A stretch of DNA of 64,000 bases from Botryllus schlosseri (lineage: Eukaryota). Both the position numbers and the translations under genes were made by a program. Below the pieces are notes generated by a model. That model saw nothing but the letters and a program-made list of their open reading frames with translations, did no database searches and was not told where the DNA came from. How positions within the stretch are numbered: position 1 is the first letter of the stretch; each line of letters opens with the position of its first letter. The stretch lies in contig CM119382.1 of the NCBI GenBank assembly GCA_051294905.1, positions 10,602,001 through 10,666,000 on the forward strand, read 5' to 3'. Positions 1,832 to 60,600 of the stretch are shown one piece after another.

Positions 1832-3541
1832 TAGGTGCTACCATTTGTGCCTGTGGAGATTTGTGGCATTGTGACAAATGGTCTTGTTGACACTGGTTGT
1901 GAACAGTCAGTCATTCGTGAAGACTTGTGTAAGCAATTGGGTTTTACACTTAAAGGACCGTATAGAGTTGTAGAAATTTTAAATGGGGCACTCACTAATT
2001 ACCCAGGGAAGGTTCGGGCCAAGGTGACGATTGATGGTGTTGTAGAGACTGAGTTTTTAGTGGCTTCAGATTTAGTGTATGATGCAAAAATAGTTCTGGG
2101 GGACGATATGGTGAAAGCGCTTGGTGGCGTTGCAGTTGATGCTGAGCTCAACACGAAGTTTGGGCTTCAAGCGATCAAGACTGCATGTGCTTCGACGAAG
2201 GTGGTTTCAGAAAGTCAGCCAGTGGAAATAGTTGACTGCGACTACCAAGCTATGTTTGAAGGGGTGAAGTGGACTGAGAACGATGGCGAGGTGTGGAAAT
2301 GAAAGAGAGATGGAGAACTGCCTGTGGTGGCAGAAACCCTAACCAAAAGAGAGTTATTTTCAGTCTTTGGGAAGTTAATTGGACACTACCCAGTGGCTGG
2401 ATGGTTGAGAGGGGCATGCAGTTATGTGGAAAGACTGACCGACGAAGTTGAATGGGATGCAGTTGTTTCAGGACAAGTGAAGACTCTGGCCGAAGAGATT
2501 ATGGCCAAGGTGCGGAGACAAGATCCAGTCAGTGGGAGTTGGCGAATGTCTCCTGGTGGTCAGGTGGAAGTGTGGTGTGACGCGAGCAATCTGGCGGTAG
2601 GATGCTGCGTGAGAGTAAATGGTGCCGTTGTAGAAGACGCGGCGTGGATGCGGAAGCAGGATGATTTTATGCATATCAATGCTGCGGAGTTGGAAGCTGT
2701 AGTGAAAGGTCTAAGCATGGTGCTGAAGTGGAACATGAAGAACATTGAAGTGGTTACGGACTCGGCTAGTGTGTACAATTGGGTAAAGTCGATACTGGAA
2801 AACAGCCACAGACCAAAAGTGGGTGGGCTAAGCGAGATGATCACAAAACGTCGGTTGGGAACAATCTCGCAGCTCATTGAAGAGAATAGTCTCAAAGTGA
2901 CGATCCGTTTGGTTCCATCAGCCAAAAACATTGCTAACTACTTGACAAGGGTCCCGAAGACCTGGCTGCAGCAGGTGGCAGCATGTAAAGAGAGGATTTC
3001 TCTGAAATCGGGGAATGCGAGGCGTTTCACCCCATGGAGAGAGGGAACCGTGACAGAAATAGTTGCAGACGCTGCGGTAGAAGTGGATGGAAGGAACGAG
3101 CATGTTGCTGATGTCAAGCACATGGTGGGGAAGCGACGGAAGGTTGCTGGTAGTAGTAATGTTCCTTCAAGAACTGTGGAACTGGTGTTCGATGAGGAAA
3201 ATTTGGAGGATAACTGGAGGTATGACGAATTTGAACTGCTGGATGAACCTGAACCGCCTGATGACATCAGTCAAAGAGAAATGGTCTTCAACGAGGGGGG
3301 CAGGGAGTATTACAACCTTGAACCTCCTGATGAGAGTAATCAAACGTAGGATGCCGATCAAGAAGCTGAATGCTCTATTCGAGATCGGGCCCCGCCTAGA
3401 TGGTTGGCCGACTACTGTGTTGATTTATGATTGTCTGTTTTACCTTAGCTGGGGGGGTTCTATGTTTGCTTGCTTGGTTATGTTGCTGTCGTTGGGTCAC
3501 CATTGTAACTGTACGCTTATGATCTTTAGATCAGGGGGGAA

Positions 3542-3702
3542 TGTGGTATTGTGATGTGCATCATGTGAACCATTGCACAAAGTAGTGTATGGCGGCGGCC
3601 TTTGGTCGGGGGAGAAGCGGGAGAGCTGTGGGGGAGTGTGCACGTGCTATGTCAGTTATCGTCGTTGTTTTCTGCTTCTGAATGAATACATCTTCAATTA
3701 CA
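3542..3702 (+). repeat. 3' LTR of element 1 (161 bp)
   Basis: Direct repeat of 374-525 plus a 9-nt insertion; preceded by the PPT and followed by TSD ATATT. Confidence 0.93.
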
Positions 3703-4101
3703 ATATTAACTTATAGAATCTGGTTATGGTACCATATTAAGTCAAGGCCGCTACTTATCTGAATGCGAAATTATAAGATCTCCCGCTGCTGCGTTGACTG
3801 AAATATGATCTGCGTGCACATGATCCGTGTTGCCAATGTCGGAACTTGCTCTCAGTATTTAGAGGCGCGCCTACGAAGAGACGTACTCGGGCTGCTATCG
3901 ATCGCACCGTACGACATTGGTGGTATATTTTAATATAACAGGACTATGTATATGCGTATAGAGTTGTTAACACGAGCGAGATTATCTAATTCTTGTAGTA
4001 GAAGCATTTGTGCATACAATTAGCAAGATAAATAGGGTTTAAATCAGAACATCCTTTGTTGACGTAACACCCCCCTTTATTCTCGTCTGGCTACGCCCCT
4101 G

Positions 4102-6084: not shown

Positions 6085-7159
6085 ATCCACCTTTCCGAGA
6101 CGCCCTCACCCTGTCCTAAGCTAGCGTCTCCTGCAAAACCGACGGAACTGCTCCATTTCAATGATGTGTACATGTCTCCCGACGATGGTTACCAATACTC
6201 GCCGTATGTAATGCCGGGCACACCTACCGGTGCAGAAGTAGGGAGCTTCCCGAGTTCGTCGGTGAGTGCATTATTTCACATTTGACATTCTCGCTGGTTT
6301 ACTTACAACTTGCATATGCTGTTAACGTTGTTCCTATGTCCGGTACCTCCTGTCCGGAACAAAATCAATGTCTGACAAAATTCTATCAATCTGTAGAAAG
6401 TCGCTAATAGTACAAAATTGTCTGAACTGAAATATGTAGTGAACTTAGTAGCCCACCGATGGTAGGTCGTGGGCTCGATCCCGGCCGGGTCAGACCAAAG
6501 ACTCGAAAACTGGTATCCGCAGCTGTCCTGCTAGGCGCTCATCATCCACGGTTAGCATGGAGGAGAAAAAAACGGGGGTGCAATGCAGACTAGGTGACCT
6601 TACAGTCGTATCGCATCTCTGTTGTCAAAGCATCTCGATGGTGCAGGCAAAGAACAATATCATACCTCTCTCAGACCATCACCCTGACTTTCAATTCGAA
6701 TTGCTGAAATTCAAAATATATCAACTTTACTCGGGACTTATCTGTGTAACCTGTTGAATATAAATCTAATCTTGTCTGCAGCATGCGGCCGATTTTCATA
6801 TGTCCGCCAGTCGTGAGTTTCAATTCGCTGTGCCATCTGCTCCGGCCCCTGGGAAGTCGGCCCGAAAAACTCAAGGAGAGGCCGAAGAGAAACGGTCCGC
6901 CACGCCGTCCAGCTACAAGGAATTATTTCCGTCTCTGTTTTCCGCGGCTGCCGAAAGCGATAACTGTGACGCCGGGCCGAGTGGCTTTCAGTACAGCGGA
7001 GAAGACTCGTCGGCGGGAGGATTTTCATTTTTTGGTCGTGACATGGAAGATAGTGCTTCGGTGGACCAGCCCGGACAGGATGGTTTTGTGTTGTCTATCG
7101 AGGATCACGAGAAAACGCAATACGAAAGTCTTTTCAGTTTCGGCGGGGCTAACAACTAA
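6085..7159 (+). CDS. Last two coding exons (6085-6261, 6782-7159) of an unidentified gene; Ser/Pro-rich then acidic/Phe-Gly C-terminus
   Basis: GC-rich open exons with canonical sites (TGCAG|ATC...TCG|GTGAGT; CTGCAG|CAT) that join in phase 0 and end at TAA 7157-7159. Possible upstream exons at 4630-4701 and 5166-5225 are unconfirmed. Confidence 0.7.
6461..6672 (+). mobile_element. 5'-truncated, older copy of the same SINE family, in the intron of the unidentified gene
   Basis: GGTAGGTCGTGGGCTCGATCCCGGCCGGGTCAGACCAAAGACTCG...GCATCTCGATGGTGCAGGC...CTCTCTC aligns with the copies at 869 and 1572. Confidence 0.85.
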
Positions 7160-8164: not shown

Positions 8165-8327
8165 TTTTAAATGACTAAAATATTGTTGCCGGAAGTACAA
8201 GTATCTTTGGCCATGCGGCATAAGAAAGATGTTGAATGTTTGCTGGCCCACGAGAGGATGAAATTTGAGTTGTAGTGGTAGCGCATAAACCTGTCGGTTG
8301 TTATTATGTTACTCATAGTGATTCGAC

Positions 8328-8481
8328 TGTCAAGATATCTGCTTATTTACAGCGGCGTTTATTATCAAAAGCACAAGCTCAGCTTTATTCAACGAATCCA
8401 CAATAACAATAATAAGCATCCGCCTCCAGCATGTGCCATCGCTGTAGCGAGTAGTCTCTCAGTATGGCTCATATCACTACA
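8328..8481 (-). repeat. 3' LTR of element 2
   Basis: Identical to 12017-12170 by eye. Confidence 0.96.
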
Positions 8482-8491
8482 TCCTCCTCTT

Positions 8492-11400
8492 TCAGTTTTC
8501 GTCATCGTCGATGTAGCGTTTCGGTTTGCGTACAGCTCGGCCGGATCTGGTAGTCTGTATGCTTGTGTTCAAGGCGCTTGAGGATGGTGTGCTGTCTTCT
8601 TGTTCTATCGGTATGGATGTGCTTGACGTGTCCACAACGTTTGTCAAGGTTTGCTCCGTGGCACATGTTTCCACATTTCTCAAGTAGGCCCGATTTCTGA
8701 CAAGCTGTCGTCCTGTTGCCATTTGTACCGTGTATCTTCGGTCACTTTCACGCGATAATATGGTCGCGAGCTTCCAAACTTTATCTTGTTTGTCCAGCAC
8801 CCGTACATTTTGTCCATGGTGCAGTAGTGGAAGTTCTTTAGTGTGCTGATCGGCGTATTTCTTCTGGTTTTCCACTATCCGGTCAACCTTGTCTCTGTAT
8901 ACCTGAGGTGTTGAGATGATATCATGAGTAGGCAGCTTCGTTGTGATGCGGCGGCCAAATAGCAGTTCAGCAGGGCTGGGCAGCACATTGTCGAGAGGTG
9001 TTGCCCGGACATTGAGTAACGCTGCCTGGATATCTCCTCCAGTCTTGATACATTTCTTGATGATAGGTTTGAGATATCCTATCTGTCTTTCGATGAAGCC
9101 ATTGGATCTGCTGTGTCGGGGTGAGCTGGTTGTGTGCGTGATGCCCCATTCATCACAGAATTTGTCGTATTGGCTGAGGTAACAAGGTCCACCGTCACTG
9201 ACTATTTCTTTGACGCTTCCAAATAAGCTCAGGATCCTTTTCGTTTTGTTGACGACGGATTTCGATGTGATCGATCATAATTCTTGCACGATGGGGTATC
9301 TGGAAAAGTAGTCTGAAATGATCAGAAAGTTCCTACCTTTGATCTCGAAAATGTCAGTTCCGAGTTTCACCCAAGGTCTTGGTGGGCGTTCATGCATCTT
9401 CATCGGTTGTTTTGTTTGTTCTGGTAGGAGCTCCTGGCATGATTCGCATGACTTGCAGAGTGTTGAAATGTCGTTGTTGATTCCAGGCCAATATACATAT
9501 TCCCTGGCAAGTCTTCTTGTCTTTTCGATGCCCTGGTGACTCTCATGCAGTTGTTGTAATATATCTGATCGCAGACATGTTGGAACGACTGTCTGATTTC
9601 CTTTGAATATTATGCCGTTTTCAAGGGCTAGCTCATCCCTGTAGTTCCAGTACTCTCGTATGTCCGAAGGTACCTCTTGAATCGTGTCGGGCCAACCAAT
9701 GTGTATGGTTTCGGCAACGGTTTTCAAGATCGGATCTGTGGCAGTTTGCTGTTGTATCTGCGATTGCTTCACACTTGAAAAACACAAGAAGTCAATGGGC
9801 ATATCACTTATGCAGCTGATAGGTACTGTGTTTGCACTGTGGTCGAGAGTTGCAGTCTCGTCTTTTTGGTTTGGTAGACGCGAGAGTGCATCAGCGAGCA
9901 CCATGCCGGGTCCAGGTCTATAGGATACCACAAAGTCGTAGCCTAGTGTTTGCGATATTATTCTCTGTAAGCGAGGGGGTGCACAGTATATCGGTTTTTT
10001 GAATATCATTTCAAGCGGTTTGTGGTCGGTAATGACCTTGAAGTGGCGGCCAAACAGATAATGGTGAAATCTTTTTATGCCATACAGAATTGCTAGGCAC
10101 TCTCGCTCAATATTACTGTAATTTGACTCACTTGGCGTCACAGCTTTGCTTGCGAAAGCGACCACTCGCTCACCTTGAACCAGCGAGCTTCCCAATCCTT
10201 TTAGCGATGCATCCACTTCCAGAGTGACCGGTGAAGTAGGATCGTAGTATTGCAGGATGTGGCTGTCAGTGATTGCTTTCTTGATCTGCTCAAAGGCGTG
10301 CTGGTGATCTTCATTCCAGAGATATGTTATATCCTTTTTGCAGAGGTCTCTCAATGACGCACTTGTTTTCGAAAAGTTTGGAATGTGACAGGCTAGGAAT
10401 TGTGCCATGCCTAAGAATGTTTGTAGGTCCTGCTTGTTTCGTGGTGTCGGCATGCCGGTTATGTCACTGACTTTTGTCGGGTCAGGTTTTACACCATGAT
10501 CAGTCAGGAGTCTTCCGAAGAACGAGATGCAGTTGGTCTTGATGCAACATTTCTTGGAATTGAGCATGAGACCCTCTTTTTTCGCAGTGTACAAGAAGTG
10601 TCTCAGTCGCCTGTCATGTTCGTCATTGTCTTTTCCGTGTATCACAATATCATCAGATATGCCAACACAACCTTCGCATTGGGCAATGATAGCATCCATT
10701 TTGGCTTGGAATATATCCTGTGATACATTGAGCCCGAATGGTAGGCGCAAGAAACAGTATTTGTCGCCAAGGGGGCTTCGAAATGTCGTCAGTTCTTGTG
10801 AGGCTGGTGATAACTTCACACTCCAGTATCCAGATTTAGCATCAAGCTTAGAAAATACTTTTGACTTGCTGAATTCTGGTAGGAGTTCTTCGACTGTAGG
10901 GATCTTGTGTGGATTTCTCTTCAGCGCTTCGTTAAGGCGTCTTGGATCAAGGCAGACTCGCAGTGTCTTATCTGCCTTCATTGCCACAGTGAGCGAAGAG
11001 CACCAGTCAGTATGTTTGGTGACTTTCCGTATAATCCCCAGGGTCTCCATCTTATCGAGATCTTGCTTGATTTGATCCTTAATATGGATTGGGCATTTCC
11101 GCGGAGCATCTTGGAACGGTTCTGCGTTCGTGTGTATGTGCAGAGTTTCTTCACCCTTAAAGTTGCCAATGCCATCAAAGCAGTCTGGAAAACATTTTTT
11201 CAGGTCCTCAATGGTATCCACTCTAGGCGGCGTCTGCTCTGTATGAGGAGCTTTGTCCATGACACTGCATGTGTCCAGATTCAGTGTAACAAGATTGAGT
11301 GCCTCGCAGGTGGGCAGGCCCAGGATGCCGGGACCGTCAGTGTCGACCACATAGAATTTATCCTTACGATACTTCTTGCCATGTGGCCGTTTGATGCGGA

Positions 11401-11905
11401 GACTTATCGATCCAAAGCACTCAATACACGAACCGGAGTAGTTCTTTAGCAAAACATTGGGTTCTGGTTGTAACGGGGTCGGATTGAATTTCCCGAATAT
11501 TTCCTTGAAAAGTCGTCTTGGAAGAGTGTTTGCTCCAGCTCCAGTGTCGACCTTGATCTTCCAGCTCCCAGTCAACTTTGGGTTCATATGCTTGAATTTA
11601 ATCCTGGTGTATGCTTCCTTACCCTGTTTGTTCTTGCAGTCGTTTACAGCTCCAATGGTGATCGATGAAATTGTGTTCGTTTGGTCATCATCACTATCGG
11701 GGTTTTGACAGTCGGTACTGCTGCTATCTGTGTCATACACTTTTACTTCTGATTGTCGAGTATGTCGACTCTTTTGATGTTTCGCTACAGCGATGGCACA
11801 TGCTGGAGGCGGATGCTTATTATTGTTATTGTGGATTCGTTGAATAAAGCTGAGCTTGTGCTTTTGATAATAAACGCCGCTGTAAATAAGCAGATATCTT
11901 GACAT
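8492..11905 (-). pseudogene. pol: pol (protease-RT-RNase H-integrase) with one premature TGA in the integrase core
   Basis: Protease KVDTGAGAN; RT LPFGLNVSQDIFQ and GISDDIVIHG; RNase H EVDASLKGLG, YSNIERECLA, TDHKPL; integrase HESH...CKSC and GTDIF. After TGA at 9277-9275 the same frame continues (VSDGGP, SNGFIER, SPAELLFGR) to the stop at 8492. Confidence 0.92.
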
Positions 11906-12139
11906 GGTGGCAGCAGTGGGATTCGAACCCACGCCATCGAAATGACTGGTCATTTCGATGGCGTCATTTCGATGGTCATTTCGATGGCGTGGGTTCGAAT
12001 CCCACTGCTGCCACCATGTCAAGATATCTGCTTATTTACAGCGGCGTTTATTATCAAAAGCACAAGCTCAGCTTTATTCAACGAATCCACAATAACAATA
12101 ATAAGCATCCGCCTCCAGCATGTGCCATCGCTGTAGCGA
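11782..12139. repeat. Perfect inverted repeat: 165-bp arms (123 bp LTR + 42 bp tRNA-Leu-derived) with a 28-bp spacer
   Basis: 11782-11946 is the exact reverse complement of 11975-12139. The ORF track gives identical peptides on both strands across it. Confidence 0.96.
11905..12016. other. Reverse-transcribed tRNA-Leu 3' part (variable arm, T arm, acceptor strand, CCA) in both orientations; not a tRNA gene
   Basis: CCAGTCATTTCGATGGCGTGGGTTCGAATCCCACTGCTGCCACCA contains a GTCAT-TTCG-ATGGC variable arm, a GTGGG/CCCAC T stem with TTCGAAT loop, discriminator A and CCA. D arm and anticodon are absent. Confidence 0.9.
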
Positions 12140-12170
12140 GTAGTCTCTCAGTATGGCTCATATCACTACA
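12017..12170 (-). repeat. 5' LTR of element 2
   Basis: Identical to 8328-8481; followed on the minus strand by the PBS. Confidence 0.96.
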
Positions 12171-15100
12171 TCGACTACTATGGTCAATTTGTTATATTTA
12201 CTCCAGGCCGATATTTCTATCATGATCCCTGATCTGCCAACACGGTTCATCTCCCTAGGCTACTGATTTGCATGACAGCGCTTACGCGGATCACCTGGCG
12301 AGGACGAGCCTAGATAAACCCGAATCACGAATTCTGGAGTCGGACTCGCAGCTTGTTGGTCGTTGCGGCTGTGGAGTATACCACGGCGCTATTTCGCAAC
12401 TACGTAAAGTCATCGGCATTAGTACAATACAATGTTCTATATATTTGCAGTCAAGGTCAAGGGTAGCCAGAAAAAATGAGGGGGGCAGAAAATTGATGAG
12501 GTCAAAGACGCCCTCCTTTTGTTGAGGTAAAAAAAAAATTACAAATGGCTCATGACAAAAACTTCGAGGGTAGCCGCAACTCAATTGCGGTAATCGTTTT
12601 AAGCAGTGTTTGGCAACACAATCATACTAACAGAATAGGAAGCTCCCCCTATCTAAAACTATATCAACGACGAAATCCATATTCCCAGTTTCCCACAGCC
12701 TGACAACATATATTCGGGTCGAATTAGGAATATCTTGATTCTATGGGATATCCCTGAGGTCGAACGATCGAACAATATTCATGATTATTACAACAGGCTG
12801 CCAACGAAAACAACTGCTGTGCTGTGTCTAATGTCTAATATAAGTTTACCATTGTAGCCTGTGTCGTGTATTGCAAGTTCACGCAATATATATGAAGAGG
12901 TCAGCACATAAAACTGTTGAACTATTGGATCAAGGATGTTGTAATCGAGGCTCGCGTCATAGCTTGGTAGGAACTAATTGCATCATTAGTGTATTTATAA
13001 TTTGGTTGATGACAACGATAGCTACGAAACTTATGTGTCGTGTCATAAACTTCGGGTAATTGTCAGCACTGTCTATCTGTATCTGATAGCTGTCAATGTT
13101 ACCAGCGTAACCTATTGCCATCGTATATAATATTCAATGATATCAATATTGACAATAGACAATCTAACAAATTTTCTAACTCGTGTTACATAACTCGCTA
13201 CTACTTGGGCCTAATATGTAGTAGCTAGCCTACTTGGGTGCGAAAACAAACACGTAACATGCGCTGGTGTAGTTCCTCAACTATTCAAGTAGTAAGCGAA
13301 TTGTCACAGCCAAATCTAGCCTGTAAAGCACACTGTAAAAAATCTGGTAGATTTACTGGGAAATCTCTGTAAATTTTACCACAAATTACCGGTCGCAGCC
13401 AATTACTGTGCGTAGCTTGTCATTTTACATTTTGATATGTAATATTACCTTAATATAGCTGTAAAGTAAGTTACCAGAATTTCTTCGCAAAATTACTGAC
13501 AGTTACTCGTTACTGCAGTTTACAGGGCTATTGGCAAAATTGATTAGCTTCAAAATCGCTGCAGCCAATGTATACGTAAAACTGAATGTTACTGATATAT
13601 CATTCTATAGAGGTGATTTGACCTGATTGAACCTCGTTTGCGAGACTGGGGTCTGTCATACCGAAATTGTTGGCCCTAGTATCAATTTAAGCTTAGTAGG
13701 GTACAAGAAATAACTGACGATCGTAGCTAATGTGGTACACCGTAGCCATATTATATTATAAGGCTATGGCTGTACGGCCAGTCTCGCTGGTTACATTCGT
13801 TGTCACGGATAAGGCTGATAAGTTAGAAAATTAGTTCAGGATGTATAATATTGCTCGGGGAAACTAGAAATATCAGCACCGCATGCTCAGCTAACCATTT
13901 GTTAATGGCGGACAAGGCGACCTGTAATAGGTTACATTAGGTGACTGCTTTTTCTGAGATTCGTAGTAAACAACCAACGCACAACTGTGACATCACAAGC
14001 AGCGTCTGGTTAGGTAAGTACAGTAAGTAGTGAACAATACATGGAATATACATCAATTTATACGAAATTAGATGAAAAAAGGGACTATATGCAATGATAA
14101 ATGTTTCTGTATGGAAAAAACGACCCAGATCAAACATTATACGTGGCCAGTAAATATTATTGGTGTCATGTGTCAGCGGATGAATACCATTTATTTCGAA
14201 ATCGTTCGAGTGTCGTCTGGCCAGTGGCCATTAGTGAGGTTTGAGCAAAGGGTGGAGCGAAGCTTGTGCTTGAAGAAAGTGAACACGATCGTTGAAGATT
14301 CCTAGGAATGCTGAATGGCATACGCATCTTAAAAGGTAATACAGTACTACATAGTATTTGTTACCGTGAATATCTGACTCTGCACACCAGCCCTCGATGA
14401 CTTAGATTTCATGATTGATATATTTCATTCGCCGCATTCTCTGTTCTATTTTTGGATATTTGTCGACTTATATAGTGACCACATACTCCGCTGCGGAGGA
14501 GTTGAAACTGTTGGCTTGGTAATGTCATTTTCGGGCCATAGCATAGATTTGTTTTCATCCACTGCTGGATTTGTTTGCCACACATGCCACCTTAAATTAG
14601 GAACCTTTTGCTTCAATACAGAGATAAAGTCATGAATCTCTGCTATGTCATGTAAAAGGCGGAGCCGTCATCACACAATGTGCCAGTACCGGTACTTCAA
14701 AACATGTTATATTTTTGTTAGCCTATTTGTCTTAGTCTTTATAATGTCATGTCCACTGTCCAGGTTAGGAACTTTGCTTTATATAGCTACTTACGCACGA
14801 ATTCTTTTTAGTGGAACTGCAAGATACTACTTAAACAGAAGGAATGAGAACGAGAAAAAGAAACAATTGGAAGTTTGGCCGGTGGTGGAATTAATTCACG
14901 TTTTCTTGAGACCACTCGTGTTACTGCATGTCTCCTAAAGAAGAATTAGACCTCCAGCAGCAATATTTTTCCATCGATAACCACTTCATCGTGATATCAT
15001 GAATGAATATACAGTTTATTCCAATGTCGTTTTGTGGATGTGAAGAAAATGTTGCGATATTTTTGCATCGGGTTGCTTTGCGATAGGTATAGATGTACGT

Positions 15101-45627: not shown

Positions 45628-48600
45628 ATGAATCTTGATTCTTTGTCACTGGCATTATCACAGATCAGTTATCTCGTGTCAAACTTGAACAAAAAAAATT
45701 ACAAGTCAAGTGTACAAGAAGTACAGCAGGTAATTCCCATGCGATGGCACTGCGTAGTTATGCCTCGTCAACCCGTTTGCTAACGCGACATTGGTTTTGC
45801 AGCTTGTAGAAAGACACGGACCAGAGGCTGATCGCCACCTGTTCCGCTGTCTTTTCTCTTTGATTGATTTTTCTGGGGATGTTAAGAGTAGTGGAAAGGA
45901 TTATCATCAGGTAGGATTTTGCTTTGTGGACGTAGACAAACACATCTCCCGTGTCCTGTGCTCACACTATACGTTTTATTTTTAATATTATTTTTTATTA
46001 AATAACTTAAACTTGGAGAATCATCGCTGCTCAACTGATACACCGATTACTGATTACCGATCGAGATAGCGTAATGGTGAAGCATCCGGCTTACTGATCG
46101 GCCAGGTTGGAATCCCGGTACGCTTAGCGCAATATCTTTGGTGTGCCAAGGCCAAGGCGGTTCTCGGCGTCACACCTGTGTGCAGTCAGTAGAATCTTTG
46201 GTGTGCACGAGACACCGATTCCATATTGGCTGATCGGTAGGTCGTGGCTTCGATCCCTGGCCGGGTCAGACCAAAAACCTGATTAGTAACAGTGGTATCC
46301 ATGTCTTAGCGCTCATGCATTACTGGGATAGCATGGAGGGGTGGTGCAAGACTTGAAGAGCCCTACAAGGCTACATCCGCACCTTCCTTGTCCAGCGTCA
46401 TATGCACTTTAATGGTATGGATATGCACATATCGTGTGTAATGTGTATGTATATCATGAGTCGGTGTATATGCCGCTAAAAGATCAAGGACAGAAATGAA
46501 CTACGTCATTTCCTTATATCAGGCAAAACGTACCGAGATTCCAGTAGCCAGGGGCGTCCGCGACATCTGTGAAGTGACATTCACGCATTTCTATGTGACC
46601 CTTTGTTTTCTCATCTCCGTTTTCATGTTGCTACGTACCAGGACACAACGATCCTCGATCAATACACACATAAACGCAATTCTTTGGTACACACACAACC
46701 TTGGAAAATGCTGCCCATCATCAGTCAATATTGAGCAGTGGCCCCCATGACCCAGACTGGAAACCGTTGTTGTTTTTGGCAGTAAGTTGCGCATGTCAAG
46801 GGTTTATACAGTAATTAAGTAATTGAAAGCAAAGTTGCGTGTAGCCTTGCCACCAATTCCACTCTAATATCCAGCCGCATTGCTCACTATGAGTCACCTG
46901 TAGTGCCTTTCGATACCCCTAAGGCCCTAAGACGCACATCTATCCGGTAATGGTACATGAGTGTAGATTGTGACGACATGTTCCAAACCCAAAACAAACC
47001 TCGTTCCCTAAGAAAAAAATGTGTCTAGCAATGACTGTAGGTGGTCGTGAGGAAGACTGCTCTCTGTAGTGCTGTTAATGAACCATTTTCTACGTATTGT
47101 CGCGGTGGAATCAAATAAGCTCAAGATATCCATTTTTCAAATTGGTGGAAAATCAAGTATTTATAAAATTTTCATGTATTTTTGACCATTTTTATGATTG
47201 TCACATTGTATCGAAGTTAACCATGCCCAAAATATGGCCGAAAGAAAATGGAAGGTTTGAATGTTTGAAATGACATAAGCGACGTTTTGGCACGATGGCT
47301 ATGATGTAGTACTCCGTCTCGTAAGTCGGTTTCTATAGTTTTGGCAAAAAATTCTTAGAGTATGTTTCGCAAATGATGCTTCATCTCAATCTGACCATTG
47401 TTCCTGACATGGATGCCATGCCGTGTACCGATGACGTCACAACATTTGTATCCTTCTAGTGCCCTATATAGAATAACATATAGGCTATCTGGAATCAGTG
47501 TCAATGTTGCTTTTGAATTCAACTATTTTAAAGAAAATCTGTTGTGACTGTATTATTGCGTTCATTATTCATTTGTAGTAGCGTGGTCAAGTTTTAATAA
47601 TTTAATATATGTGATAAAATATTATGCTCCTGCCTGAAACCCAGTTTGTGTGTTCCATTTCAGACCATATTTATAGATTTTGAGTATCTTGGTCCAAACT
47701 GTACAAAGATTGAAACATTTCATGACTATAATGTACTGTACTGATCATGTCCTACCCGCTGTTAAACCTTTGCAACTTGTCTTGAGCGATGCCAATTAAT
47801 AACTTCTCTGTTCAGACACAGCTGTTGATTCTCGAGTGTGGCACGCTCGCTACAAAACCGAATTTCATCTCTACTCTCTGTCACGCGATAGACAGTCCCT
47901 TGTCGCACCAAAAATCTCTGCAACCGTCGTCGAACCTCCTCCAGAACATCAGTCGTAACCTTCGTTTCGATAAAGTACAGGAAGTCGTGTTCGGAATCGC
48001 CCTGCAACATTCCAGCATACAAGAAATTCGAAAGCACGGTATGCTGACAACTGCAGTCGGTAAAATATTCCTGTGACACTTTTTTGCTTTGTTTTGCAGC
48101 GACCGAGGTTGTGAAAACACAACTGCCTGAAGTTATCCGATTACATCTTGAAAGCATCAAAGTCAGTGGGAGAGGAGCTAATACACAGGTGATTTCTCGC
48201 TGTCAATTAGTGTCACATTTCTTACTCGCCACAATGAGGAGCTTAAGCGTTCTGCCGCCTCATATTTGGTGATACGATTGTTGATATACAATGTTCTTTC
48301 CAATTCTCTACTAGTTGCCGACGATTACACATATCAGCTGAGAATATTCGGGTTCATTTCGATATTTATATACTTTTCAATTGTATATTGAAGTTCTGTA
48401 TCTTGTAGAAGCTCTTCAAATACTATCATTACATTAGTGTGCCTTCGGCAATATTCAGGAATAGGATGGGATGTCGATATTGTTCAGTGTTAGTTTGTTG
48501 CGAAGCGATGATGCTGTGATTTTCCTTCCTGTGTACGTGAAATACAGCTGTAACACCACATTTTAGCTACCGGTACTCGATTCAATATGCAGTTGTTGTA

Positions 48601-54600: not shown

Positions 54601-57600
54601 TTGTTTATCCTGCTGCCGGCTGCATCCATTATGGGCAATGGCTGTCCTGTCTCCAATATTTCTTGGCTTGCTTGTAATTCTTAGCGCAGCACGCCGAAAA
54701 ATACAATGTTTATTTTCTCCTGCTTTCTCATGTGTACAAATACGAGTACCTTAGCTATCTAGTTATTCTTCTGATCGTACTCAATCTGCGTTGCTGTGAA
54801 TTTATCTCACTTGCGATGCGTATCAGTAATGCCAGCACAGCAGGACGCAATCACCCGCTGAGGTTGCGTATTTATTCATCTGTGCCGAAATGGACTAATT
54901 TATATTCACGCTGTGTTGTAATATAATGTGCTCTTGTCACATCTCACCAGACTCGCTGGTAATCTGACTCGCTGGTAATCTCCTTCATTTTATATACATC
55001 ACACGTGTACGTTCGTTAACACATTGAAGATTGTCTGATACTTGTTTTCTATGTATTTGCACATCTATACCCCGATTAAATTGACGCTACCTTGATAAAT
55101 TTTGAGAATCTCAAACCCCGCCATTTTTCTCGGCTGGGTGCACATCCGATTATGGCATGTAGGATACAATACACCTGTCGCTGATGATGGATACAAATTT
55201 GGACTCACTGAAGTAGACGTCCCAGTGTTTGGGAATCTTTCGTGATAGCAGTGCTAGATAGCAACTGAAGCGACATATTTTTGTTATTTTCGATATTTGT
55301 ATGATTAAGAGATATCGTTTGATAGAAAAAATGATATGTGGTGTGTTGATTCCGAGTACTCTCTTTCAGACCGATCACGGATTTTCCAACGTCTCGTCAC
55401 AGCCACCGGCGCCCCCAGCTCCGCAACCAGAGCCGCCGAAAGAATCTAACCCCCTCCAAAATTTCGGGCCTCTCCACGGGTTGGGGTCCAACTCTCATTT
55501 CGGATCTAACGGCGGCGCCAGGATGCCCTTTGCGAGTGGCGTGGTGCCCAGGTCCATGCCTGGGAGTATCGGCGCGGTCGGGATGCAGCCGCCGGGACAC
55601 GGCGACAAGCCCCAGGCCATGCCGGGCAGTTCCGGTTTGGGCATGGGGCTGATGGGTCTTGGTTCGGGATCGGTGGGTCAGCTTGGAGGTCATGCGACAT
55701 CGGGGTTTTCATCGTCGTTTGGGGCCGTTAGTAGCAACTCGGGGCCTTCGGCGTTGAACGGTGCCCCTTTTGGGTCTCAATTGGGGTTCGCGAATCAATC
55801 CACGCAAGGTATGTTGATCAGATTGTGTGAGATACTCGCAGGGTTGTAATGACTCAAGTCGCGATTTCTTGGTGACTCGACTCGAGTCAATTTTTGTGTC
55901 GACTCGACTTGTACTTGAGTCATTGCGCACGACTCGAACCAAGTCATATGACTCGAGACTAGGACACAAGACGTACATTTCATTGTAACTTCGAAGAATA
56001 GCGAAGTCACCGCTTTATTGATATTTCGTCTATCAGTCCTGATACATGGAAAATAGGGCCAGAAACTATTAAGATTGAGGAAAATTACGTTATTATGAAT
56101 GCGAGCCATTCTATATCACTCGAGCAGAGTTGAAAAAGTGGGTTGAATGGGATTGAACTGGAAACTGAATTGTGAACAGAATGACTTGGACTCAGGCTCG
56201 AGTCGAAACACTATGACTCAAACTTGACCTCCTACTCACTGACCTGGACCTCCTACTCACTGACCTGAACTCGGACTTGACTCGGTGGTGAAATGAAAAT
56301 GACTCGACTTGACTCGAGTCGAAACTATAAAAGTGAGATTGACTTGAGACTTGGTCACAACCGTGGATACTCGTGCTCGAATAAACCCGAATATTTTCGG
56401 CTGATGCTCGTCAGGGGTAATCGGCAGCAACTGGTAGTGATTTCAAAAGAAATTTTGTATATCAACAGTCTTATCAACAACTGTGATGTCACTGATGCGG
56501 ACGCCGTCTAGTAGAGCTGTTTTTTCCTGAATCTTGCTGGCTACGTGATTAAATCGTTAGGTTGCCTTAAAAAACGACGCACACCAAGTTTGAATTCATC
56601 CCAACCAATAATCGCGGATTTCGTACAGTTTGAAAATTTTGAATTTACCCAAAAATGTAAAAAAAAATTTTTCAAATTTTCTTGTCATCGCCATGAAATT
56701 GCTGCTTTGTCTTCAAAAACGATGCAAAACAAATTTGACTCAATTCCAAACCAAAGAAGCGGAGTTATTTGAGTTTTTCAATGATAATTCTTGGATTATC
56801 CACCGATCAAGGATAATCTCCGAATTATCAAAAAAAACTCAAATAACGCCGGTTCTTCGGCATCTAGTGAGGCATATAGGCCACAAAACGGTGTCGCTAG
56901 TGATGTATACAAATATGTACTTGCTGAAGTAGATGTCCCAGTGTTTGGGACTCTTTTGTGATAGCAGTGCTAGATAGCAACTGAAGCGACAGTAATAACC
57001 GAAGCGATCGATTGATTTCACCCATCCCGACAATACAACTTTTGCATATATGTATTTTCCTTACATTCACCCCCTTCTTCGCAGGGTTCGGACACACCAA
57101 TCTGCTCGGCGACCTGAGCTCGGTGAACTTTGGCGACACCTCCACAGACCCTTTCGGCCAGTCGAAACTCGAGCAAGGCTTTGGTGCTCAAAAGGCCGAC
57201 CTCCTCAACAAAAAAGTGCTGGACCTGTTCGGTCAATCGAAAATTGGCGGCGCATTCAACCCTGGCACAGGTGACCGACTCAAATGTCGAGTGTTGAGTC
57301 GGGACTAATTGTTACCGTTACTTTTCAGGACTGGGCTCGTTGTCGCCGGGTATCGGGTCTGCGCTAGGTATGGGCGGTCAGGACCCTTTCGCGCAGAAGA
57401 AAGCGACGGGCGTCCCGCTGGGACAGGCGGCGCAGCAGGCGTTTCAGCAGGCTGGCGGCGTTGGACGGGGTGCCAGGACTGCAAGTAATGCGGTTTTGTT
57501 TGGTAACTAGGTGTATTTGATAGGGCATGCTATATCCGAGGGTCCTGATCAATGTTCTCTCTAATTTTTCATGAGGCTGCGCGCACTCACCAATTTACTG

Positions 57601-60600
57601 CGCGGTGCCTTGGAGAACAGTGAGTAGCAACTAAAAAAAAGTTCTTAACTTTGGATTTTTCGTGCGCAACTTAGATTTTCTGTGCGCAGAGACCGTGTCA
57701 GCACTGCGCAATTGCGCACGTGCGCAGCTAGAGGGAACATTGGTCCTAATTGTAGATTCCGGTTCTGATAATTTGTGGCTTTGCTTCTAACTGTACCTTG
57801 TTCGGAGATGTGAATTTTGGGCTGAATATCCCAAAAAAGTTCCTAGAAGAGAAATCCGACAATGTATGGTTAACCTGTGCTAGTGCTAGTGACGGTTTAT
57901 GTATGTAGTTCGGAGTTTGTGGCACTATTTAAATGGTGCTTCAGTAAATTTGTCGTTATTCCTGCTCGTTTTTGTGGTGATTTCGATTATGAACAGCAAT
58001 GAATTCAATCGGCTCATTTATCAAAGTCCGTCGCCAAAAATCGTTGGTAACTCTCCGGTATACTAAGAAAAACAGTATCGTTAGCCATGTACAACTAGAT
58101 CACTGTGTGTCCCTTGCCGTAAGAGTAGCCTTGTTTAGTGTGCGAGGTTTTAATACCTTGACACCTTTCTGAAGGCGGCGATTTGTCGCAAGTCTGGCCG
58201 GACATGAACCAGAAATTCAACAAGGAGATCGAGGACGAGGCCAACGGTTATTTCCAGCAAATCTACAACCAACCGCCGGACCCGGTGTTGAGTGTTGACC
58301 AGGCGAGTTACGCTGTTTGGAGATTTTGCGAATGTTGTCCGTGTCGTGGTGGGGATTTCGAGATCTTGAAAATGGCGTCGGTAACTGTGAATTCTTGCTT
58401 TGAGCGTTTTATTCCTTATGGCGCCAAGTCTCGGCGTACAATTTTTCAATTTTTTCTAAAACTACTGTTGACAAGAAGCCTGGTGGTAGGAAGGAATGCA
58501 AACTGTATAGTAGGGCTGTTCAAAAATAACCTTTTTTCCTAAATCTTGTTGGCTACGTGATTAAATTGTTAGTTTGCCTTAAAAAACGACGCACACCGAA
58601 TTTGAATTCATTCCAACCAATATTCGCGGTTTTCGTAGAGTTCGAAAATTTTGAATTTGCCCAAAAACGCAAAAAAAAATCTTTCCAAATTTTTCTGCCA
58701 ACCCCATGAAATTGTTGGGCTGTCTTCAAAGACTATGCAAACCAAATTTGACTCAATTCCAAGCCGTAGAAGCGGAGTTATTCCAGTTTTTCGATGGTAA
58801 TTCTTGGATTATCAACCGATCAAGAATAATCGCAGAATTATCGAATAAAAACTGAAATAACTCCGCTTCTACTGCTTGGAATTGAGTCAAATTTGTTTTG
58901 CATAGTCTTTGAAGACAGCCCAACCATTTCATGGGGTCGGCAGAAAAATTAAAAAAAAAAATTTTTTGCGTTTTTGGGCAAATTCAAAATTTTCAAACTC
59001 CACGAAAACCGCGAATATTGGTTGGAATGAATTCAAATTTGGTGTGCGTCATTTTTTAAGGCAACCTAACAGTTTAATCACGTAACCAACAAGATTCAGG
59101 AAAAAATGTTATTTTTGAACAGCCCTACTGTATAGTTTTCGATTAGCTTACTGTCAATGTGATAATCCCCACGACTGTGATTGTATGTTTTTGCTTCTAG
59201 ATTCTGGATATCTTGAGGAAGTTCAAGGATTCCAACGACAAAAAGGAGAAAGACGTTTTCAATTGTATGCTGCGAAACCTGTTTGAAGAATACAGGTTCT
59301 TCCCGCAGGTGCGCTATTTTGTCATCTCGCTAGCTACACGCTTTCCGGCCACCTTTTTTTTCTGTGAGAATTCAAGCTCCAGCTGAGATCGGTCAAAAAT
59401 CTATTTCCGAAGGTTGTGAAATTTGTGGTGTCACTACCTACCATCAGTCATTTTCCATCTTGTATCACGTCTTGGAAATCGCTACTGGTGATTTGACTAA
59501 AAATCGACAACATTTTTACTCGAGTATATACGTCGACTGCTTTTGACTACCTCTGTTCTTTGCAAAAGTGCTCGAAAACTTGTATATCACAGTACCCGGA
59601 CAAGGAGCTCTACGTGACGGCATGCTTGTTCGGCGGCATCATCGAACGAAACCTGGTGCCGACCTATCTCGGTGAGTGCGGCTCTGCGTGTTTGCCTTCC
59701 GGCCTGGCTCGACAGCGGTACGGTTTGTTCGCAGCTTTGGGCATAGCTCTGCGGTACATACTGGAGGCGCTGCGGAAGCCCAGGCCGAACAAGATGTACT
59801 ACTTTGGCATCGCCGCGCTGGACCGTTTCAAAAACAAGCTGAAGGAGTATCCGAAATACTGCTCGCACATTCTCGGCATCCCGCACGTCAAAGACTTTCC
59901 GGCGCATATCATCGAGGTGCGAATATGCAAACATACTTGATATTGGATGGATTTGGATTTGGACATCAAATTTTGAATAATTTCCCTATTTTATGCGATT
60001 TTGTACAAATTTGAGGCATTACCGGATTTGGATGTGGCTTCTAATCAAATCCGTGACATTATTTTTATGTAGAGATGCATCTATATATCTAAATCTGTTC
60101 GCATTTTGTAAAAATTCCGGCTTTAAAAATTTAGTTTGTGGAATACGGGAAGCACAAGATCGACCCGCCCAGTCAGAGAGGCTCCAGGACGCCGACGGCT
60201 GGGATTAATCCGGGGCAGCAGACGACACAGTCTCCGGCCGCGGGTTCGGTGACGCCGACGAGCGCGACGCCGGCGTCCAACGCGGCGACGTCTAGGGCGT
60301 CGTCCACTGGCCCCAAGACAGGCGCCGGAGGGAAAGAGGTACGTCCGCGATCGTATTGGTATTTCGTAGAAAAAGTTCAGTCCAGTACAGGTAACTTCTA
60401 CTACCGAAGGTGGTCAGTAAGAAAGAATTTCGGGCAACTCGAGTCCGTTTTAAACATTAATTGGAACAAGATTGCGTTGCTTTTATGCCTAAATTGGGAT
60501 AAAAAGGGGAGTGATTGCCCCTATATGACGGTGACTCGATATCTATTCAAGTTTTCCACTATTTGTAGTGTCATAAGTCTTTTTCTCAGATGGATCAATG

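Follow-up and report, generated by a model that had tools for sequence, protein, structure and literature searches.

How does a young LTR retrotransposon come to carry, at the place of its short primer-binding site (PBS), a perfect palindrome assembled from its own LTR and the 3' end of a tRNA? The question is raised by a locus in a window of 64,000 nucleotides from Botryllus schlosseri (GenBank assembly GCA_051294905.1, contig CM119382.1, positions 10,602,001 to 10,666,000 of the forward strand), and the coordinates given below are positions in this window unless a genome location is stated. Our answer, which we consider likely, is that the palindrome was made within one faulty round of reverse transcription, by overrun of the reverse transcriptase (RT) into its tRNA-Leu primer, two slips on the variable arm of this tRNA, and a fold-back.

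The segment 8328-12170, read on the minus strand, is a young copy of a Ty3/gypsy element with both LTRs (Table 1), possibly of the Mag clade, a name that we use as a candidate label only. The Pfam domains RVT_1, RT_RNaseH, Integrase_H2C2 and rve follow one another in the gypsy order; a D-T-G motif is seen in the translation before the RT, and Pfam gave no match to protease. A PBS after the 5' LTR and a polypurine tract (PPT) before the 3' LTR are both present. The copy integrated with a 5-bp target-site duplication (TSD) and integrase-type ends. Its interior differs from that of the full-length family copy L031 by 13 mismatches in 3456 nt (99.6% identity). The copy is dead, with no function shown. 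A single premature stop is found at 9275-9277, in the integrase region, and the interior from +14 to +881 is missing (868 nt, which held the leader and some 260 residues from the start of gag). The preliminary description had proposed a jump into late gag at 11782, and at that place a microhomology with gag was indeed found; the junction falls 3' of the zinc knuckles and 5' of the protease-like motif.

Table 1. Features of the focal element and of its palindromic centre
Feature	Position	Strand	Remarks
TSD, 5' side	12171..12175	.	5 bp, same as 8323-8327
5' LTR	12017..12170	-	154 bp, TG...CA; 100% identity with both the 3' LTR and the LTR of L031, a copy of the family
42-nt complement of mature tRNA-Leu, A76 to G43	11975..12016	-	begins at the first base past the LTR
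Three tandem variable-arm units, segment G43-C48	11949..11988	+	14, 12 and 14 nt
46-nt inverted arm, tRNA-Leu complement, A76 to A39	11905..11950	+	ends two bases before G37
Inverted piece of LTR nt 32-154	11782..11904	+	100% identical to both LTRs
Junction of gag and inverted LTR	11782..11783	.	2-nt microhomology; late gag, +882/883 from the PBS of L031
Remnant gag-pol	8492..11783	-	starts at about residue 260; protease-like D-T-G, RT, RNase H, integrase
PPT	8482..8495	-	
3' LTR	8328..8481	-	154 bp
TSD, 3' side	8323..8327	.	5 bp

The arms of the inverted repeat, 11782-11946 and 11975-12139, are 165 nt in length and identical at every position (100%), with 28 nt between them; the probability of such a repeat by chance is about 1e-90 by a crude estimate. 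Both are composed of LTR nt 32-154 and the complement of the 3' end of tRNA-Leu. The palindrome had been recognized from the first, within limits (11905..12016) that were too small, as it includes the LTR segment. When scored against a genomic tRNA-Leu gene plus CCA, the short tRNA arm measures 42 nt as originally reported, and the long arm 46 nt (76 to A39) instead of 45. The extra bases on the long arm likewise are real and number four, not three, the last two being common to the first stutter unit. The 42-nt arm stands where the family has a PBS of 13 nt, and it has T66 where the family has C66. Both arms cross the T loop and the entire variable arm, and the tRNA text of the locus is confined to positions 39-76. 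The two bases at 11947-11948 are those of the would-be snap-back loop. The stutter was correctly described as three tandem copies of the variable arm; the first unit occupies 11949-11962 (14 nt), the second 11963-11974 (12 nt), and the third, at 11975-11988 (14 nt), is also the start of the 42-nt arm. The slips fall at microhomologies of 2 nt and 1 nt. The variable arm folds into a stem of five pairs with a UUCG loop, as had been noted, but the closing pair is U-A, whereas the extra-stable form of the UUCG tetraloop is closed by C-G. Whichever way it is read, the centre of the locus resolves into four runs that match the tRNA exactly. In the whole window ARAGORN reported no tRNA gene; the Rfam match to tRNA at the locus (28.9 bits) lies under the gathering score of 29. 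Further Rfam matches to the OppA thermometer, MIR5998 and tmRNA were rejected, as they are far under their gathering scores and are driven by the palindrome.

We searched the genome for the source of the tRNA text with a 26-nt pattern, which has 54 sites; we read all of them but the two at the focal locus. They are either whole tRNA-Leu genes without CCA or 3' fragments with CCA. Nearly all of the CCA-bearing fragments adjoin an LTR end (L064 is without a recognized LTR), and the single 3' fragment that lacks CCA sits within a tRNA cluster. None of the matching tRNA-Leu genes that were read encodes CCA, which both focal arms carry. By an anticodon pattern we counted 30 tRNA-Leu genes, 20 with AAG, 10 with TAG and none with GAG. 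The 46-nt arm corresponds to gene L057 (anticodon AAG, pair A7:U66) with a non-encoded CCA added. The preliminary description had named two findings that would count against it, namely a tRNA-like leader of 40 nt or more in intact relatives, or the lack of a host tRNA-Leu with this variable arm. Neither is the case. The PBS of all five near-full-length family copies is 13 nt long, with C66 (5/5), and tRNA-Leu(AAG/TAG) genes with the variable arm exist, without CCA. As both focal arms have T66, in contrast to the C66 of the native PBS, their text comes from the primer and not from the RNA of the element. T66 recurs in 20 of the 39 tail arms described below (A66 in one), and a gene with it is found once among 19 CCA-less matches, as the A7:U66 pair. 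Decay of a CpG as the origin of T66 was rejected, given that the corresponding change of G67 to A was seen in 0 of 37 cases and that other CpGs are without such change. Tails L040 and L054 combine the TAG anticodon with T66, and no gene found has both.

The locus had been treated as a one-off, a treatment that the genome does not bear out. CA followed by the 13-nt Leu PBS occurs at 55 sites, two of them the focal arms, and at 35 of the 55 the complementarity to the tRNA is overextended, reaching at least 17 nt. Such Leu-PBS tails are spread over five or more LTR families, whose pol sequences are 64-67% alike, and the join of LTR and tail was found in at least seven LTR families overall; the focal locus is the most elaborate member of this large class. 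We scored 39 arms of at least 16 nt, which come from 38 loci, and left out the duplicated second copy at L051 and L062; L144-L147, four further loci, stand outside this scoring. One tail ends at 16-20 nt, three at 21-38, 14 at 39-45, eight at 46-48, five at 49-55 and eight at 56-59, and none among the 39 arms passes 59 nt. The span of 39-45 nt is the 5' side of the variable arm, G37 is nt 48 and G26 is nt 59. According to PMC8062790, m2,2G26 is near-stoichiometric, and m1G37 is partial and blocks AMV RT. From where the tails end, we infer that modifications at 58, 37 and 26 may be present on tRNA-Leu of this organism.

The base at position 34 is informative in the tails that span it (n = 12), where it is G in seven, T in five and A in none. 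Since GAG genes are lacking (the count of 20 AAG and 10 TAG given above), the G34 of these tails is a mark of inosine; I34 is encoded as A and gives G in cDNA (PMC8062790). The primers from which the tails were copied were CCA-tailed and I34-edited. The mark belongs to the sister loci only, as the focal arms end before position 34. Position 58 reads A in all but one of 38 tails (37), as would be expected both of the hypomodified primer suggested in the preliminary description and of an accurate or processive RT. Products that stopped at 18 nt were probably trimmed back to a normal PBS and so became invisible. The missing ends at 18-19 nt are therefore not proof that the enzyme reads past m1A58, since DNA halted there may have transferred normally.

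A second primer with tails, in two further families, is tRNA-Leu(CAA), whose genes contain an intron. Its sample of 38 fetched loci (30 of 66 matches, and eight from a generic pattern) gave 24 tails, 14 of which end at 40-42 nt; the longest measure 49-50 nt and end at the G37 boundary. Among the first 100 of 285 entries, tails of at least 28 nt made up 10 of 94 junctions in one of the Leu-CAA families and four of five in the other. The generic pattern for other tRNA primers has 55 matches, 45 of Leu type and 10 others; eight of these 10 were inspected and rejected as SINE-like, repeat or chance text, with no read-through.

A typical tailed copy consists of LTR, tail, a jump to the interior and the 3' LTR. 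At 14 clean forward junctions (22 were tried, and eight were excluded for filler, inversion or divergence) the microhomology between tail and interior has a mean of 2.8 nt, compared to 0.68 +/- 0.26 nt in simulation (0/20,000). A 5-bp TSD was detected by script in 12 of 15 tailed copies with two LTRs, and L055 became the thirteenth after its LTR start was corrected. L044 and L080 (G000:C3:37.436 and 37.473 Mb) are tailed copies of the same family in opposite orientation, with their TSDs swapped; the swap implies an inversion of about 35-38 kb between them. Nine cases of a solo LTR with its tail running into host DNA were examined. A 5-bp repeat is present in L104 and L070, four of five TSD bases match in L040 and L088, and the remaining solo cases have none. 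L104 (G000:C5:20994202), a solo LTR of the focal family with a 53-nt tail and G34, is an integrated strong-stop DNA; its flanks hold an 8-nt direct repeat that overlaps the end of the tail.

Several other loci depart from the typical arrangement at or just beyond the tail. In L068 the tail end repeats a unit of 7 nt, taken from the variable arm at its base, before the jump to the interior, and L050 and L052 have strand inversions directly past their tails. L115 (region of G000:C2:38164721) consists of an LTR, a 38-nt Leu-CAA tail and an inverted LTR, both LTRs being of full length. Its arms are 86% alike, each of them is nearer to different copies of the family (90% and 95%), a TSD match is absent, and it looks like the join of two different strong-stop products. 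L105:6288-8669 (G000:C12:21.459-21.461 Mb) is a focal-family copy in which two facing units of LTR and 9-nt PBS surround a 70-nt inversion and 1.5 kb of pol; a PPT precedes its first LTR.

Two copies, L060 and L083, kept their entire interior, because their tails annealed anew to the end of the LTR, immediately ahead of the native PBS. In these, as in L109 and L124, the re-annealing duplicates the U5 end and creates, upstream of the native PBS, another that is perfect. The native leader of L060 and L083 matches the tRNA complement at 11 of 12 positions and then, still in register, at all seven positions across the T loop, where the other three families checked have no match; it may descend from a tail that became fixed, or serve as a second site of pairing. 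Variants of the native PBS are constant within families (C66 in 5/5, T66 in 3/3), and one family has a mismatch to the tRNA at position 70 that recurs at eight sites. This constancy fits, indirectly, the non-inheritance of the primer known from Ty1 and Ty3; purifying selection or recent descent could also account for it.

For the focal locus, the CCA, the two arms and the slips support the original proposal of an RT that ran deep into a mature tRNA-Leu primer, slipped on the variable arm and switched strands. In the order of events that we favor, with a confidence that falls a little short of an even chance for this particular route, a single strand snaps back on itself. The RT would run past the usual PBS and 46 nt into the mature primer (in the window-plus direction), whereupon two paired bases would let the strand turn back around a loop of 2 nt. 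Two slips would follow, the first of 14 nt at a 2-nt microhomology and the second of 12 nt at a 1-nt microhomology, and synthesis would then continue in the tRNA sense out to the CCA and through the whole LTR. The inverted LTR would finally join late gag by the microhomology jump. The preliminary description had held that a simple self-foldback does not explain the extra bases of the long arm. Read in the window-plus direction, these bases are the loop of the one-strand snap-back, so that one strand suffices and two molecules are not required; a single primer would likewise put T66 on both arms. The microhomologies at the locus are of 1-2 nt, lengths that chance often yields.

A second route, which we regard as possible though well below an even chance, involves two plus-strand strong-stop DNAs, one with a stuttered tail of 42 nt and the other with a tail of 46 nt, joined 3'-to-3' by two bases. 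The first would take the second as its template as far back as LTR nt 32, from where it would jump to the minus strand, in late gag. Parsed in the sense of the element, the locus needs an equal number of switches, at microhomologies of 1, 2 and 2 nt, and both 42 and 46-47 nt are frequent tail end points. The plus-strand tails of the sister loci mostly jump to the interior through microhomology, as this route supposes, and L115 shows that head-to-head joins of different LTRs occur. The route requires, however, two tailed molecules that both carry T66, as 20 of the 39 arms do, and it leaves flaps for host repair, whereas the one-strand snap-back yields the extra bases as a loop at no added cost.

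Host enzymes could also have produced the structure. Fold-back and polymerase-theta-like templated insertions are mechanisms of host repair, and a tailed, deleted copy may have integrated first, the inversion and the stutter being made later by a template switch during host replication or repair. Tailed deleted copies are frequent in this genome, and short fillers with microhomology also mark host end joining, as at the solo LTR-tail ends of L061 and L070. We nonetheless judge this sequence of events unlikely. The copy is very young (three LTR copies are identical, and it is 99.6% identical to L031), and the turn occurs exactly at the tail end beside G37, just as the stutter of L068 and the inversions of L050 and L052 occur at tails. 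The read-through step is common to the one-strand, two-molecule and host-repair readings.

That the palindromic center is a fold-back artefact of assembly or library at a tailed copy appears very improbable. Perfect palindromes can be chimeric, and read-level support for the junctions was not found; no piece spans the 11781/11782 junction among 11 of 128 contig pieces listed (four runs, 11300-11900). These pieces show normal LTR and normal gag continuations, and contigs drop rare forms. Against an artefact, the TSD and the LTRs match on both sides, the arms are unequal, the stutter is templated and the junction is clean, with microhomology. Four runs of one sample moreover hold 0.64-0.75 of the words, compared to at most 0.53 in others, the sample possibly being the source of the assembly and so not independent; no RNA run is among the holders listed. 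Capture as DNA of a tRNA gene or tRNA-derived SINE beside the LTR, to which the weak Rfam match might point, is hardly conceivable, as the CCA is present, the text abuts the LTR end exactly, the 5' half and flank of a gene are absent, the locus has neither a full cloverleaf nor A and B boxes with a 3' tail, sister loci carry G34, and an equal join recurs in at least seven LTR families.

We also considered LTR nt 32 as a transcript start, by which the inverted piece would be a whole minus strong-stop DNA. In two RNA runs, of which about 3-4% each was read, no pile-up of read starts was seen there, and this candidate gained no support; reads continuing upstream of nt 32 numbered 40 of 48 and 14 of 40, possibly from 3' LTRs. 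In these families the initial plus strand probably extends deep into the primer as a rule and normally leads nowhere, as is described for Ty1/Ty3, where the overrun measures 12 nt.

Retroviruses offer the closest parallel for this step. Plus-strand strong-stop synthesis in HIV-1 halts at m1A58, with a second stop at m5Um54 (PMC8599865 and PMC11251516), and cDNA that passes both stops is said to be non-integrable (PMC8599865). In the retroviruses, as here, the plus strand proceeds from U5 into the primer, and loss of the stop gives cDNA that exceeds the PBS. Unlike the HIV-1 products, the overrun products here were integrated, with 5-bp TSDs, as dozens of germline copies with ends at 39-59 nt. 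For Ty1 and Ty3, PMC5371799 describes the first plus-strand strong-stop DNA as a dead end and the primer as not inherited in the PBS. The likeness to the present families lies in a short PBS, a first plus strand that enters the tRNA, and a family-specific PBS that is not overwritten by the primer. The Ty1/Ty3 product, in this source, stops after 12 nt of tRNA-iMet, whereas the tails from an elongator tRNA-Leu here are three to five times longer and, unlike that dead end, were rescued by microhomology jumps. Copies of tRNA-Gly in a circle of MMLV (Colicelli and Goff) and beside an HIV provirus, and of tRNA-Asp/Glu in HIV nef (PMC12220202), are similar in that a CCA-bearing tRNA copy adjoins U5, with deletions associated. 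They are isolated clones from cell culture with non-cognate, nearly whole tRNAs. The present copies, in contrast, are of a cognate, partial primer and form a germline-fixed series, of which the focal one is palindromic with a stutter.

Ohshima and Okada reportedly proposed a strong-stop-plus-primer model for the origin of tRNA SINEs. The inserts of solo LTR with tRNA tail (L104, L040 and L070) are physically such chimeras, although their tails contain the 3' half only (the B box side) and amplification of one chimera gave two local duplicates at most. Mu killer is an inverted duplication that silences its transposon family. In its sequence the focal locus resembles it, in that a perfect 165-bp hairpin made of family sequence follows the LTR of the element itself. 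A literature search, confined largely to open papers, brought up no account of LTR retrotransposons with lengthened primer copies as a series in the germline; the accessible portion of PMC7197481 contains nothing on tails.

The chemistry of overrun into the tRNA is thus known, and what the search did not bring up is an integrated, frequent, multi-family germline series with a ladder of modifications. So far, only retroviruses and two yeast elements have shown how plus-strand synthesis stops on the primer, and products of overrun were taken for dead ends that do not integrate. Here they are integrated and frequent, and they can be read, their ends and altered bases being a record of how the primer was modified in the germline. 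To this the focal locus adds slippage and fold-back in vivo on a tRNA structure, the variable arm. We put forward, as a tentative generalization, that in Leu-primed gypsy elements of animals m1A58 may not be the stop, and that the plus strand may routinely enter 40-60 nt into the primer, halt at the variable arm, m1G37 or m2,2G26, and often be rescued. If so, the genome would be a fossil tRNA-seq of germline primers (I34 as G, and C-to-T at 66). Overrun would be a main killer of some families, with about 22 tailed and 3 native junctions in one, and it could rewrite the PBS, as one family's leader keeps the T-loop match in register. The spread in tail frequency between families offers a natural measure of how well RT and RNase H complete the second-strand transfer, and palindromes like the focal one might yield hairpin RNA against the family. 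In annotation, such tails will be mistaken for pseudogenes of a tRNA whose anticodon, GAG, is impossible.

The window contains several other repeats. At 58500-59138 lies a MITE-like inverted repeat of 313 nt, 90% complementary, with 13 nt between its arms, and relatives of it repeat at 56520-56837. An LTR-like pair (374-526 and 3542-3703) encloses ORFs, with protease- and RNase H-like text at 1835-3349, and is a separate, decayed retroelement. A dispersed SINE-like repeat with a tRNA-like B-box segment occurs at 875-1132, 1576-1831, 6480-6672 and 46232-46278.
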